Below, one piece after another: positions 20,336 through 33,749 of a stretch of 64,000 nucleotides of DNA. The position numbers and the translations under genes were made by a program. Each line of letters starts with the position of its first letter. The first letter of the stretch is position 1. Origin of the DNA: Escherichia phage Gostya9; the sequence record NC_047979.1; one strand, written 5' to 3'. Under the pieces are notes generated by a model. That model searched no databases. It had not been told where the DNA came from and saw nothing but the letters and a program-made list of their open reading frames with translations.

Positions 20336-20688
20336 TAATCTTTCCTATTGTTAATTGGTGGATAGTAAACTAAGCAACGTTTTTCTTGTAAATCTTGGCG
20401 GTAGAAGCAAACCATACTAGTCAATCGTGAGATATATGAATATTCTGCCTCCCGGCATTTTGCTAACATATTCCAATCTTTATAAGGTACAACAACTACT
20501 ACGCCATCTTCGCCATTTGTAGCTAATTTCTTTTCAAATTTGAAATCAAAGCTACAAGGTTGAAGCCCTTTAGGCCAGTCCACATGAGCTGTTGGTAGCT
20601 CATGTGATAGCTCTGGTACTACCGTTTCTGCACAGCCTGTGATTGTGATTGCGGCTGCGAGCAGTATTCCACGCTTCCAGAAAGACAT
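20335..20688 (-). CDS. lipoprotein (possible outer-membrane spanin)
   Basis: 117 aa; signal peptide with lipobox ITGC. Confidence 0.5.
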   Translation of the reverse strand: MSFWKRGILLAAAITITGCAETVVPELSHELPTAHVDWPKGLQPCSFDFKFEKKLATNGEDGVVVVVPYKDWNMLAKCREAEYSYISRLTSMVCFYRQDLQEKRCLVYYPPINNRKD

Positions 20689-21062
20689 GCTAATCTCTCC
20701 TCAAATTCTTTACTCTGCTTTTTAGCAATTAATGTAACCAATCCAGGCTTTGCAGCTATAATATCTTGACGACTAAGTGCTTTATCAAGCTGACTAATTT
20801 TCTTGTCTAGATCTGCTTGCGAAACATTATTCATTGTGAAATACTGATTCATTCTAGTCTCACGAAGTTCACTCTCAGCCCTCACATTATTAAGGGAGGT
20901 TTCTAGAGAAGAGATCTTTTTAGTAGCTACTGCAAGATCACCTGATAGAGTCTCAACCTTATTAAGTAAGTGATAAGCACCGAATCCGATGCCTATCGCT
21001 AGACCTGCTCCCAGGATAAACCATTTACCTTGCCATAGAGAACTAATAAAGTTTTTTATCAT
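20619..21062 (-). CDS. membrane-anchored coiled-coil protein (possible inner-membrane spanin)
   Basis: 147 aa; N-terminal TM then long helical region; overlaps downstream lipoprotein gene. Confidence 0.45.
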   Translation of the reverse strand: MIKNFISSLWQGKWFILGAGLAIGIGFGAYHLLNKVETLSGDLAVATKKISSLETSLNNVRAESELRETRMNQYFTMNNVSQADLDKKISQLDKALSRQDIIAAKPGLVTLIAKKQSKEFEERLACLSGSVEYCSQPQSQSQAVQKR

Positions 21063-25602: not shown

Positions 25603-25893
25603 TCACACACTGTCTAAGTAAGAAGTATAATGGAATTTAGTTTCTCCAGTCTTATCTACTTCTACCTCAGTTCGTGGTACTTGATGAACCACACCATGAA
25701 TCATCTTATAGCGAATGCCTTTAGCTGGTTCATGATCTTTTGGAAATACTTGTTTAACCGTTACTACTTTATATCCTTCACGCGGTGTTAACACTACTAC
25801 TTGATCCCCCTCTTTGATTTTCCAAGAGGGTGGGAATTCATAGGTGTATCTTTGGCCACCGGTTTGGAACATAACAGAAAGATAACGTTTCAT
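25603..25893 (-). CDS. hypothetical protein
   Basis: 96-aa ORF downstream of promoter 25924-25952. Confidence 0.45.
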   Translation of the reverse strand: MKRYLSVMFQTGGQRYTYEFPPSWKIKEGDQVVVLTPREGYKVVTVKQVFPKDHEPAKGIRYKMIHGVVHQVPRTEVEVDKTGETKFHYTSYLDSV

Positions 25894-26137: not shown

Positions 26138-26231
26138 TGGCAGAAGGTAGTGGATTTGAACCACTGATCAGGATTTCAGAGACCTCGGCCTTAACCGACT
26201 TGGCTCAGGTTCTTCAAGGCGCTTACCTTCA
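26138..26231 (-). tRNA. tRNA-like element with canonical 3' half; 5' boundary and anticodon unresolved
   Basis: CCA, acceptor 3' strand and T-arm GGTTCAAATCC are clear; D-arm GCC-AAGTCGGTTAA-GGC present but acceptor closure is ambiguous; overlaps 3' end of ORF 26168..26377. Confidence 0.3.
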
Positions 26232-26379: not shown

Positions 26380-26607
26380 TTAATCCTTATTACAAGTGGT
26401 AGAGAGGATGGTACGATCGGAGATCCAACCGCCAGTGTAAGCACCATTGACTTTATATTCAGTCAAAGTACCGTGACCACGAATAGCGAAAACTGTTAGG
26501 GTTTTCGTGCCCCCATAACCATCTTTAACAGTTACGGTACAATCTAATGATGTGCCGATAGTGCAGCCAGCTAAAGTCAGAGCAGCAATCAATACTAAGT
26601 ATTTCAT
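26380..26607 (-). CDS. small lipoprotein
   Basis: 75 aa; signal peptide with lipobox LAGC. Confidence 0.5.
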   Translation of the reverse strand: MKYLVLIAALTLAGCTIGTSLDCTVTVKDGYGGTKTLTVFAIRGHGTLTEYKVNGAYTGGWISDRTILSTTCNKD

Positions 26608-26630
26608 GTTGTTATCCTTGTTAAGTTAAT

Positions 26631-26703
26631 TGGTGCATCCTCAGGGAATCGAACCCCAATCGTAAAGTTCGTGGCTTTACATTCTTTCCATTGAAATAAG
26701 GAC
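26631..26703 (-). tRNA. tRNA, tentative Arg (ACG)
   Basis: CCA + acceptor GCGTCCT/AGGATGC; anticodon loop CCACGAA; hand-folded. Confidence 0.4.
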
Positions 26704-26711
26704 GCAATATT

Positions 26712-26788
26712 TGGGGTGGCTAGTGGAATTCGAATCCACATAGGCCTGATTCACAATCAGGATCATTAACCAATTATGATATAGCCAC
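26712..26788 (-). tRNA. tRNA-His (GUG)
   Basis: perfect 7-bp acceptor, T-arm GTGGA-TTCGAAT-TCCAC, anticodon stem CCTGA/TCAGG with loop TTGTGAA. Confidence 0.6.
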
Positions 26789-27011
26789 AATTGAAAACTC
26801 GCAGGGTTAGCGAAACCATCCTCAATTAGCATGTCTAGAATACTAATCAAGTTATCTCCTATTGCATGCAGCTCAAGACGAGTACGAATTTTCAATTGTG
26901 GCGGCTCTCCGAAACTCTTCTATTCTAGTCCCAGAAGCTTACTCCCGAACGCATGTCGGGGAAGTCTTTCCAAGCGCACCAAATAGCACCGTTACACTTT
27001 GAGCCATTATT

Positions 27012-27106
27012 TGGAGGTAGGTAAGGGGATCGAACCCTTACACCGTATCACTACGATCAACCGATTTCAAGTCGGAGTCCAGCGCCAGCCGTTGGATTGA
27101 CCTACC
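27012..27106 (-). tRNA. tRNA-Ser (UGA), type II
   Basis: 95 nt; perfect acceptor GGTAGGT; anticodon loop CTTGAAA; long variable arm. Confidence 0.5.
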
Positions 27107-27118
27107 ATATAAATTGTT

Positions 27119-27209
27119 TGGCGGAAGAGGAGAGATTTGAACTCTCAAGCCGTTTTACCAGTCAGCCACTTTCCAAGCGGTTTTCGTCGCCAATTCGATT
27201 TGCTCTTCC
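27119..27209 (-). tRNA. tRNA-Ser (GGA), type II
   Basis: 91 nt; perfect acceptor GGAAGAG; anticodon loop TTGGAAA; long variable arm. Confidence 0.5.
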
Positions 27210-27321
27210 AATCATAAGATGATGCCTCTATCACGCCAGGCAGTTACGCCTCGCTGGGATTCGAACCCATTAAAACAGCTCAACCGAGATAGTAGGTTTA
27301 ATTTACTCTGACCATCAAATT

Positions 27322-27398
27322 TGGTGCGTGACAAGGGATTCGAACCCTCAAAACCCGACTTCTAGGGACGGTATGTATGCCAATTCCATCAATCACGC
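27322..27398 (-). tRNA. tRNA, anticodon unresolved (loop CCUAGAA)
   Basis: CCA + acceptor GCGTGAT/GTCACGC + T-arm AAGGG-TTCGAAT; anticodon stem has one mismatch. Confidence 0.45.
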
Positions 27399-27406
27399 GT
27401 ATTTTG

Positions 27407-27477
27407 TGGAGAAAGAGGGAGTTGAACCCTCGTCTTCTGCGTGCAAAGCAGATGTTCTACCATTAAACTATATCCCC
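27407..27477 (-). tRNA. tRNA-Ala (UGC)
   Basis: anticodon stem TCTGC/GCAGA with loop TTTGCAC; G3-U70 wobble pair present; CCA not encoded. Confidence 0.55.
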
Positions 27478-27714
27478 AAATTCTTTAGTTTACTAAGGCT
27501 ATTAGCTCGGCGTAACTACAGCACCTTCGCTTCGAGCGGAAGGAACCGCGTCATCTCGCAAACCCGATACACTATTCAGTTGCCGCTGAATCTAGTGGAC
27601 TAATCTAGAACTTCTCCCGAGTCGTAGGATCGTGCTTTTTGGCAGCCAGTCCTAGGTCGAGCTAATACCTTAGTGAACTATGATGAGGATTTCTCCCCAT
27701 CAATTTATATAAAT

Positions 27715-27843: not shown

Positions 27844-27907
27844 TGGTCAGTGCGGCAGGACTCGAACCTGCGACCCGAATCATCCAGGGATCCCACGCTA
27901 CGCACTG
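27844..27907 (-). tRNA. truncated tRNA-like element (64 nt)
   Basis: perfect 7-bp acceptor CAGTGCG/CGCACTG, CCA and canonical T-arm GCAGG-TTCGAGT-CCTGC, but only 29 nt between them. Confidence 0.3.
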
Positions 27908-28288: not shown

Positions 28289-28362
28289 TGGCGCGACCGA
28301 TGGGATTTGAACCCACATTCCCCGTGACAGGGGAGTACCATTACCAAGCCAGCCCCTGTCGC
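28289..28362 (-). tRNA. tRNA-Asp (GUC)
   Basis: anticodon loop CTGTCAC flanked by CTCCC/GGGGA stem; T-arm GGGTTCAAATCCC; CCA encoded. Confidence 0.55.
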
Positions 28363-28659: not shown

Positions 28660-28740
28660 TGGCGGGCCGTGTAGGATTCGAACCACCAACCCCGAAGGGC
28701 ACGGATTTACAGACCGCTGCAATAGCCATTCTGCCAACGA
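28660..28740 (-). tRNA. tRNA-Tyr (GUA)-like, type II; acceptor closure not confirmed
   Basis: anticodon loop CTGTAAA, variable arm CCC-TTCG-GGG, T-loop TTCGAAT and CCA; no complementary 5' acceptor strand found. Confidence 0.4.
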
Positions 28741-33237: not shown

Positions 33238-33266
33238 ATTATACAGAAGTTTAAGTATTTAAGCAA
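33238..33266 (-). promoter_or_regulatory. sigma70-type early promoter
   Basis: TTGCTT-17-TATAAT on minus strand. Confidence 0.65.
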
Positions 33267-33281
33267 ATAAATTTTTAAGTT

Positions 33282-33749
33282 TTAAGTTTTAGTGACAGCA
33301 GGCTTATAAAATGTATGCCCCTTAATCTTAGTTGTTTTCTTAAACTTCTTTGTCCAGTACGGTTTATCTTTACCACTATGGAAGTATAAGGCTCCATGTG
33401 TAGGATCTTGTGGTAAATCAACGTAGTATATCACTCTAGCTAAATTCTTGGCGGTTTGCCAAGCCTCATCGGTTTTATCAACTTTTGGTCTCTTAGATAC
33501 CCAAGAGAACTGGTTAGACTGATATACTACTTTACAGTAGGAATCTGGGAATTTACCGGAGTTTACACGGTTTTTAGTAACATGTGCAATCGCCGTCATT
33601 CCCTTTATGCCCTCACCACGACTTTCGAAATAGATATTTTTAGCAATGCAATCTATTTCTTTTGCATCGTGCGATGCCTGACTACTAAAGCTGAAGGTAA
33701 GGGCAGCTACTAAAAGCAAAGCTGCCTTCATTCTTTTTACTCCTGCCAA
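33282..33749 (-). CDS. secreted cell-wall hydrolase (SleB-like Hydrolase_2 family)
   Basis: 155 aa; signal peptide; AKNIYFESRGE..AIAHVTKNRV..YCKVVYQSNQFSW pattern. Confidence 0.6.
   Translation of the reverse strand: MAGVKRMKAALLLVAALTFSFSSQASHDAKEIDCIAKNIYFESRGEGIKGMTAIAHVTKNRVNSGKFPDSYCKVVYQSNQFSWVSKRPKVDKTDEAWQTAKNLARVIYYVDLPQDPTHGALYFHSGKDKPYWTKKFKKTTKIKGHTFYKPAVTKT

Follow-up and report, generated by a model that had tools for sequence, protein, structure and literature searches.

The segment between RNAI and tRNA-His of Escherichia phage Gostya9 is the T5 RNA III gene, closed by a conserved and covarying helix

Introduction

Next to the tRNA-His gene in the tRNA cluster of Escherichia phage Gostya9 (sequence record NC_047979.1, of which a stretch of 64,000 nucleotides (nt), 'the window', was analysed) lies a segment of about 100 nt that is closed by an inverted repeat, and the question it raises is what, if anything, it encodes. 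An earlier note, made from the sequence alone, had offered a structured RNA, a degenerate tRNA or a tiny gene. The first option stands, given an annotated rnaIII in related phages and a helix that covaries, while the other two fall. The segment is the gene for RNA III (rnaIII, RNAIII), a small stable non-coding RNA of T5-like phages that is already catalogued. The best explanation overall, which we consider probable though well short of certain, is that this T5 RNA III gene specifies an RNA of ~105 nt excised from the tRNA precursor between RNAI and tRNA-His.

An annotated RNA at the same locus in T5-like phages

Positions 26600-27500 of the window are 98.8% identical to Escherichia phage DT571/2 and 98.3% identical to DT57C, both T5-like members of Tequintavirus, and 453 phage records match this region. 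All 12 tRNA genes called by ARAGORN (25.3-32.5 kb) are on the minus strand, with several others added by Rfam, and since the segment is sited in this T5-like phage tRNA cluster it is to be read on the minus strand. Four curated records annotate rnaIII as a misc_RNA, 'RNAIII, stable RNA with unknown functions': T5 (AY543070, 30284-30389), Salmonella phage 5 (AJ604531), and DT57C and DT571/2 (KM979354, KM979355). The gene and its immediate surroundings in the window are as follows.

26790-26894, minus strand: mature form of RNAIII, 105 nt, 5'-UGAAAAUUCG...GAGUUUUCAAU-3', placed by homology and alignment to T5, phage 5 and DT571/2
26895-26898, minus strand: spacer CAAU, 4 nt, from the 3'-CCA of RNAI to the annotated 5' end of RNAIII; outer part of a CAAUUG box
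26899-27005, minus strand: RNAI (rnaI), 107 nt, adjoining RNAIII upstream in the same precursor and ending in GCCGCCA
26712-26789, minus strand: tRNA-His(GUG), the downstream neighbour; 77 nt according to ARAGORN (26712-26788), 78 nt in the T5 annotation, which includes a U at position -1 (26789)

RNA III of T5 occupies the same locus between rnaI and tRNA-His, on the same strand and, by alignment, with the same ends; it is the same gene. The window copy matches T5 rnaIII over its full length (98.3% identity to AY543070 over 118 nt), with one indel and one substitution inside RNAIII: the loop of its second arm is without one A present in every other record (7 nt against 8 nt in T5), and the first arm reads GCAUGC where T5 has GCGUGC. 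RNAIII recurs at identities of at least 90% in 281 phage records, none of them identical to the window RNAIII, and in most of them it is unannotated or overlaid by a 'hypothetical protein'. The upstream neighbour, which the earlier note took for the next tRNA, is RNAI, and two tRNA-Ser genes missed by ARAGORN then follow.

A consensus scan of the region yielded no promoter-like site between the genes neighbouring RNAIII. Rfam contains no family for RNAIII or RNAI, and the single match, to isrF (E = 6.3), is a chance one. RNA I and RNA III of T5 were reportedly described by the Bayev/Ksenzenko group in the 1980s; a full-text literature search turned up neither the primary papers on them nor any functional study.

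The inverted repeat that closes the segment

The inverted repeat is real, and longer than the 10 bp first noticed. One arm, TTTTCAATTG at 26889-26898, had been placed correctly, whereas the other was shifted by one: CAATTGAAAA occupies 26788-26797 of the plus strand, not 26789-26798, and begins with the complement of G1 of tRNA-His. The perfect Watson-Crick repeat measures 14 bp, GCCACAATTGAAAA (26784-26797) pairing with TTTTCAATTGTGGC (26889-26902); a repeat search extends it to 18 nt at 94%, and in the precursor RNA the helix comes to 20 bp when G-U pairs are counted, extending on one side into RNAI at its 3' end and on the other into the initial bases of tRNA-His. Repeats of 10 bp within 130 nt are unremarkable (7.8 +/- 2.7 per shuffled 64-kb window); not one of 20 shuffles contained a repeat of at least 14 bp. 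The minus strand has a folding energy of -31.6 kcal/mol (z = -3.85), which none of 200 shuffles equalled, and the plus-strand fold is not outstanding (z = -1.86).

26883-26902, minus strand: 5' strand of the closing helix, GCCA (RNAI 3' end, 26899-26902) plus CAAUUGAAAAUUCGUA (26883-26898)
26784-26803, minus strand: 3' strand of the closing helix, UGCGAGUUUUCAAUUG (26788-26803, the last G being G1 of tRNA-His) plus UGGC (tRNA-His nt 2-5, 26784-26787)

In the precursor the closing helix places the 3' end of RNAI beside the 5' end of tRNA-His.

Exchangeable RNAs in one slot

The slot, defined as the interval between the CCA of RNAI and G1 of tRNA-His, was read in 54 loci, taken from IMG/VR and metagenomes by the tRNA-His 5' sequence and from selected GenBank records. 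It is occupied by at least five mutually unalignable inserts of 34-139 nt.

Allele A (RNAIII): 111-112 nt including the spacer; 281 phage records; the allele of the window
Allele B: 34 nt; 2 phage records; a plain hairpin with a GCAA loop, visibly allele C minus its interior
Allele C: 69 nt; 65 phage records; EPS7 type
Allele D: 139 nt; 15 phage records
Allele E: 127 nt; 55 phage records

RNAI and tRNA-His flanks are present in 422 records, where ~418 of the 422 junctions hold one of the five alleles and no empty RNAI/tRNA-His junction was seen. In the cross-allele alignment the interiors are essentially unalignable, and phage S124 retains the 34-nt hairpin only; the interior is exchangeable, down to a plain 34-nt hairpin. 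Scanning metagenomes with the tRNA-His 5' pattern returned 10 loci, two of them chance matches outside a tRNA (L037, L039) and one (L038) with allele E. RNAI likewise exists in two types, of 107 and 100 nt, whose interiors do not align, and the combinations of RNAI type and spacer allele that were seen are 107+A1, 107+E, 100+A2, 100+B, 100+C and 100+D; RNAI and the slot RNA therefore reassort.

Covariation of the closing helix

Every allele begins with CAATT(G/A), finishes with (C/T)AATTG and has an ungapped closing helix of 16 positions (17 in allele E), or of 20 positions once the GCCA of RNAI and the UGGC of tRNA-His are included. Covariation was assessed in an alignment of the helix arms comprising 10 distinct sequences from alleles A-E, with 500 shuffles. 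Paired cells make up 97.5% of the helix in these arm sequences against 84.9% in the shuffles, both-sided changes occur in 9 of the 20 helix pairs, and the covariation score is 0.409 compared with 0.166 in the shuffles, not one of which reached it. When the partners are slid out of register the paired fraction collapses to 30-47%, and compensation is visible even inside allele D, with G-C, A-U and U-G at neighbouring pairs. The earlier note had let its suggestion hang on conservation of the inverted repeat in relatives, and the repeat is indeed conserved there, with compensatory changes. The closing helix is the sole feature kept across all T5-like phages.

An inverted repeat may also act in DNA, as a cruciform, as a recombination hotspot or as the terminal inverted repeats of a small insert with a CAATTG target-site duplication. 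CAATTG is palindromic and hence forms direct and inverted repeats alike at both borders, five different inserts share one site, the alleles reassort with RNAI types, and the region is a known hotspot of deletion and recombination (PMC12483538). However, the helix keeps G-U pairs (UG:7 at one pair, GU and UG elsewhere) that are mismatches in DNA and in the opposite strand, and the retention of pairs such as U-G points to an RNA of minus-strand sense rather than to DNA. Between alleles the helix arms are visibly homologous, with a divergence that increases inward, which speaks for one ancestral hairpin and not for five insertions. The element is single-copy in the window, none was found in E. 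coli genomes, the 422 records include no empty site, and CAATTG is not over-represented (21 found, 20.9 expected). A function of the repeat at the DNA level is thus very unlikely. A mobile insertion resembling a miniature inverted-repeat transposable element was also rejected as a candidate, in view of the single copy, the lack of empty sites and the occupancy of ~418/422 junctions.

The interior of RNAIII

Inside the closing helix of allele A the minimum-free-energy and RNAalifold folds agree on three arms, to which an alternative hairpin has to be added.

26855-26881, minus strand: arm 1, a weak predicted hairpin that carries most of the variation within the allele, in one-sided changes only, all of them compatible with pairing
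26821-26851, minus strand: arm 2, a 12-bp hairpin, CUUGAUUAGUAU / AUGCUAAUUGAG, with the 7-nt loop UCUAGAC (8 nt in T5)
26805-26817, minus strand: arm 3, a small hairpin resembling a T-arm, GGU(U)-UUCGCUA-(A)ACC, with a single base between it and the 3' strand of the closing helix that follows
26798-26814, minus strand: alternative hairpin, UUCGC-UAACCCU-GCGAG with UUUU after it, which cannot form together with the closing helix

The alternative hairpin is the one first noticed as CTCGC-AGGGTTA-GCGAA. It exists (UUCGC-UAACCCU-GCGAG on the RNA strand) but it and the closing helix are in competition, and relatives back a different version; arm 3 is preferred because allele D has the loop UUCGCUA at an equivalent position on a different stem, GAG/CUC. 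With its U-run the same hairpin could let the 3' part of the segment control read-through into tRNA-His, as an intrinsic terminator or as an attenuator. A consensus scan flagged it, and its mutual exclusion with the closing helix renders a switch conceivable. Yet the stem has just 5 bp and the U-run just 4 residues, the scan yields 2 sites in the region where 3.3 are expected by chance, alleles B-E lack the hairpin, the closing helix exceeds it by far in stability, and tRNA-His and tRNA-Arg follow directly, co-oriented and without a promoter of their own. Termination at this site is barely credible.

A terminal helix with three arms, a 7-nt loop that begins with UUCG beside the 3' strand of the terminal helix, a location within a tRNA cluster and a genuine tRNA remnant nearby (~27240-27265) all invite comparison with a degenerate tRNA, i.e. 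a pseudogene whose cloverleaf was lost after duplication within the cluster. The details do not bear this out. ARAGORN makes no call at the segment, and RF00005 (gathering score 29 bits) has no match in 9 kb at E up to 1 or in 225 nt at E up to 10. The terminal helix spans 12 bp in the mature RNA and 16-20 bp in the precursor against the 7 bp of an acceptor stem, and arm 2 alone has 12 bp. The loop UUCGCUA has a C at the A58 position of a T-loop (canonical UUCRANY), and the annotated 3' end is CAAU and not NCCA. A pseudogene, moreover, would not match the conservation of tRNA-His, and neither the four other alleles nor the 13 allele-A variants read include a tRNA-scoring intermediate. The silence of ARAGORN and Rfam, the C at the A58 position and the CAAU end dispose of this option of the earlier note, and we hold a tRNA pseudogene to be highly improbable.

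Conservation was gauged in 27 distinct loci with a 107-nt RNAI and a 112-nt spacer, mostly from Tequintavirus, in all of which arms 2 and 3 are invariant.

RNAIII: nucleotide diversity 0.0098; segregating sites 7/112
tRNA-His: nucleotide diversity 0.0097
RNAI: nucleotide diversity 0.060; segregating sites 24/107

The T5-type interior looks constrained, RNAIII being as invariable as tRNA-His in Tequintavirus. To judge from these comparisons the interior probably has an accessory, lineage-specific role of its own in this genus: its conservation there suggests a role, and replacement by unrelated alleles, the bare hairpin kept by S124 and the dispensable del-1 region suggest that the role is accessory and confined to the lineage. 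RNAIII is not essential; viable deletions have a hotspot in the tRNA-rich del-1 region (PMC12483538).

A reading that overlaps with the best explanation, and that we regard as possible but doubtful, shifts the weight to this interior. RNAIII would act mainly in trans, as a tRNA-like decoy or sponge for a host nuclease, a defence system or an RNA-binding protein, or as a base-pairing regulator, with the closing helix as a scaffold only. In its favour the conservation of RNAIII equals that of tRNA-His and its diversity is six times lower than that of the adjoining RNAI, arms 2 and 3 do not vary in the 27 Tequintavirus genomes, the fold is cloverleaf-like with a T-arm-like hairpin common to alleles A and D, and alternative, freely recombining alleles in one slot are a pattern typical of host-interaction loci; the neighbouring T5 tRNAs are documented counter-defence factors (PMC11464382, PMC10644984). 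On the other hand, the 34-nt hairpin of S124 and the unrelated interiors elsewhere imply that no interior function is common to the group, and the region is dispensable in the laboratory (del-1, PMC12483538). An antisense target search found no significant complementarity in the window (the best stretch being 12 nt at 20683-20694, E = 0.31), RNAIII has no similarity to E. coli genomes, and it matches no Rfam family.

Open reading frames over the segment

Open reading frame (ORF) 26677..26895 exists (72 amino acids (aa), TTG start), but as a gene the frame is artefactual. A small protein encoded by this ORF, or by the ORFs of 43 and 53 aa annotated in some records, would agree with matches to phrog_28521 (E = 4e-35) and phrog_24969 and with the 'hypothetical protein' that several GenBank records place here. 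Residues 1-21 match phrog_24969 and residues 22-63 match phrog_28521, and relative to T5 the window ORF is two frames fused by a 1-nt deletion. The ORF crosses tRNA-His into tRNA-Arg on the same strand, more than one-third of it being sequence of these two tRNAs; its N-terminal part is swapped for unalignable sequence in alleles B-E; there is no Pfam match, and the internal AUG is not preceded at a usable spacing by a Shine-Dalgarno sequence. Near-identity of the nucleotide sequence across hundreds of genomes accounts for the PHROG families, and the matches trace to ORF calls, probably automatic ones, made by other depositors over RNAI, RNAIII and tRNA-His. The tRNA sequence within the ORF, the frame-shifting indel with respect to T5, the replacement of the N-terminal part in relatives and the absence of a Pfam match leave nothing of the tiny gene, and a protein product can be given next to no credence.

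Comparable calls are seen in loci L048-L053 (Epseptimavirus records, positions 53/70-232), where a 'hypothetical protein' of 53-59 aa covers the 3' half of RNAI and the 5' two-thirds of RNAIII, in one record even with a ribosome-binding-site feature. These calls, which feed PHROG families 24969 and 28521, look like systematic mis-annotation.

A proposed route of excision

The preferred reading, an RNA III gene whose product is cut from a tRNA precursor, entails a specific chain of events. RNAIII would be co-transcribed with the phage tRNAs from the minus strand and excised from the precursor between RNAI and tRNA-His, and the closing helix would be a module for processing and insulation, keeping RNAI and tRNA-His apart and setting the insert free. 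According to the annotated T5 ends and the alignment, RNAIII starts with 5' UGAAAA and finishes with UCAAU 3', which puts its ends at CAAU/UG on both strands of the palindromic box, with 2-nt 3' overhangs; in the fold of the mature RNA the terminal helix has 12 bp and the 3' overhang 2 nt. Cleavage behind the CAAU of each CAAUUG strand would generate this terminal helix and overhang, and would leave a 4-nt CAAU tail on RNAI, which exonucleases would trim back to CCA, and a U at -1 on tRNA-His. Once excised, RNAIII would accumulate, its terminal helix and short overhang offering 3' exonucleases no foothold; the 'stable' of its annotation would be explained because a 12-bp terminal helix with a 2-nt overhang would resist these enzymes.

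The end geometry suggests excision of the RNase III type or by RNase P, and does not tell the two apart. A symmetric 2-nt stagger in a duplex of ~20 bp is a signature of the dimeric RNase III, and the 20-position ungapped helix supplies the stem of about two turns that an RNase III substrate has in its precursor. RNase P, for its part, measures the combined length of acceptor and T stem, which is 12 bp, and the same ends would arise if it measured off 12 bp on the 5' side and cut at tRNA-His on the 3' side. Another stable RNA of the cluster, RNA2H, was checked for the same 2-nt-overhang geometry and has a tRNA-like GCC tail instead, which gives no support for a general RNase III rule.

Several points weigh against this account. 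The ends of RNAIII are those of the GenBank annotation and not of end-mapping or expression data, the 78-nt annotation of tRNA-His with its U at -1 may have been drawn by analogy with the host tRNA-His and not from measurement, and the roles of RNase III, RNase P and RNase E are pure inference. Within the helix the outer 9 pairs never vary and are uninformative on pairing, and the outer 4-5 bp of the 20 compete with the acceptor stems of tRNA-His and RNAI. As to the interior, 13 distinct allele-A sequences contain no double-sided compensation in the arms, with four one-sided changes that are compatible with pairing, and in sub-allele A2 (Epseptimavirus) one uncompensated change breaks a pair of arm 2; because there are no double-sided changes within allele A, the interior fold rests on thermodynamics and compatible one-sided changes. 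Linkage to tRNA-His or a recent sweep, and not selection, could account for part of the low diversity of RNAIII.

Comparison with known systems

The nearest analogue is the pair of species 1 and species 2 RNAs of phage T4 (rnaC, rnaD), two small stable RNAs, of unknown function and adjacent to each other within a phage tRNA cluster (PMC2330249). As in RNAIII, the T4 RNAs are co-oriented with the tRNAs, exceed tRNA size and are each closed by a terminal helix, and they directly abut tRNA-Arg. In contrast, they have no sequence similarity to RNAIII (blastn with word size 7 finds 7-mers only) and fold differently, rnaC having a canonical T-arm (CCGGGUUCGAAUCCCGG) that RNAIII is without. The T4 pair also comes after the last tRNA, whereas RNAIII sits between RNAI and tRNA-His, both of which contribute bases to its closing helix.

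A second parallel is provided by RNase III processing stems, such as the sites in phage T7 early mRNA (R1.1) and the stems flanking 16S and 23S rRNA. In both cases a duplex of ~20 bp is formed from the flanks of an excised RNA, and the annotated RNAIII ends are staggered, with 2-nt 3' overhangs in a dyad-symmetric box. The RNAIII stem differs in being perfect, A/U-rich and devoid of the internal loop typical of T7 sites, cleavage of RNAIII by RNase III is something that we infer, and the product is the small RNA itself and not an rRNA or mRNA.

The 3'ETS-leuZ RNA of E. coli, derived from the spacer of a tRNA operon, is a single-stranded, Hfq-dependent sponge that acts by base-pairing. It illustrates how a polycistronic tRNA precursor can leave behind, after processing, a fragment that is not a tRNA or an mRNA and that is able to gain a function. 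RNAIII, unlike 3'ETS-leuZ, has a compact helix-closed fold, and no target was found for it in the window or in E. coli genomes.

Neighbouring features of the tRNA cluster

The surroundings of RNAIII contain further RNAs and irregular features, listed here from the immediate flanks outward.

26789, minus strand: position -1 of tRNA-His, a U in the phage
26899-27005, minus strand: RNAI, with conserved ends (GGCUCAAAG.GUAACGGUGC ... GAGUUUCGGAGAGCCGCCA), a GGCUC/GAGCC stem like that of a tRNA, and a 3'-terminal GCCA that is encoded
27012-27106 and 27119-27209, minus strand: tRNA-Ser(UGA) and tRNA-Ser(GGA), without an ARAGORN call, annotated in DT571/2 and T5; tRNA-Ser(UGA) is matched by Rfam only as a sub-threshold tRNA-Sec
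~27210-27321, minus strand: gap between tRNA-Ser(GGA) and tRNA-Leu, with an apparent tRNA 3' half, GGGUUCGAAUCCCAGCGAGGCG (T-arm plus 3' strand of the acceptor), without a 5' half
~27497-27668, minus strand: homologue of 'RNA2H', annotated in DT571/2 as a stable RNA of unknown function of 172 nt; closed by a 15-nt inverted repeat (27500-27514 / 27653-27667), with a tRNA-like ...AUAGCC tail
25603-25893, minus strand: ORF of 96 aa, homologue of T5.058
26141-26213, 27847-27907, 28292-28362 and 28668-28739, minus strand: tRNA or tRNA-like matches found by Rfam only, 25-34 bits
32408-32481, minus strand: ARAGORN tRNA with the unusual anticodon ACU, labelled Ser; 39 bits in Rfam
33245-33349: perfect 11-bp inverted repeat (AGAAGTTTAAG / CTTAAACTTCT) with 83 nt between its arms, overlapping ORF calls; its spacing and total size of 105 nt equal those of RNAIII

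E. coli tRNA-His encodes a G at -1, which is an identity element for histidyl-tRNA synthetase; the acceptor stem and C73 of the phage tRNA are otherwise presumably as in E. coli. RNAI of the 107-nt type shows apparent compensatory changes, e.g. CUUGG...CUGGG against CUUAG...CUAAG. The tRNA 3' half may be a deletion remnant, and in T5 the HNH endonuclease gene hegC lies just upstream of tRNA-Ser(GGA). Judged by their order along DT571/2, the Rfam-only matches appear to be tRNA-Gln(CUG), a short tRNA-Pro of 61-64 nt, tRNA-Asp and 'RNA3'; DT571/2 has RNA3 and a 636-nt 'RNAX' annotated further upstream. The T5.058 product, gp58, is reported to bind DNA 3' ends and to trigger the DRT9 reverse-transcriptase defence (2025, PMC12483538).

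Concluding remarks

The RNAIII gene is not new, as it is already part of the T5 reference genome annotation. What is added here, an allele-swapping slot, strong covariation of the closing helix and the geometry of the ends, turns an old annotation into testable hypotheses. For annotators, the ORF calls over 26677-26986 are artefacts. The function of RNAIII, like that of the T4 species 1 and 2 RNAs, is a question decades old, and the universally conserved, covarying helix, at least five exchangeable interiors and the tRNA-like invariance of the T5 allele now provide experimental handles on it. A more speculative idea, to which we assign a rather low probability, casts the RNAI/tRNA-His junction as an 'RNA cassette slot', in which the 20-bp helix and the CAAUUG box would form a universal excision module for RNase III or RNase P, and unrelated structured RNAs would be swapped by recombination, each of them a lineage-specific RNA for counter-defence or host manipulation, e.g. 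a tRNA-like decoy. If true, this would parallel the counter-defence role that has been shown for the neighbouring T5 tRNAs.

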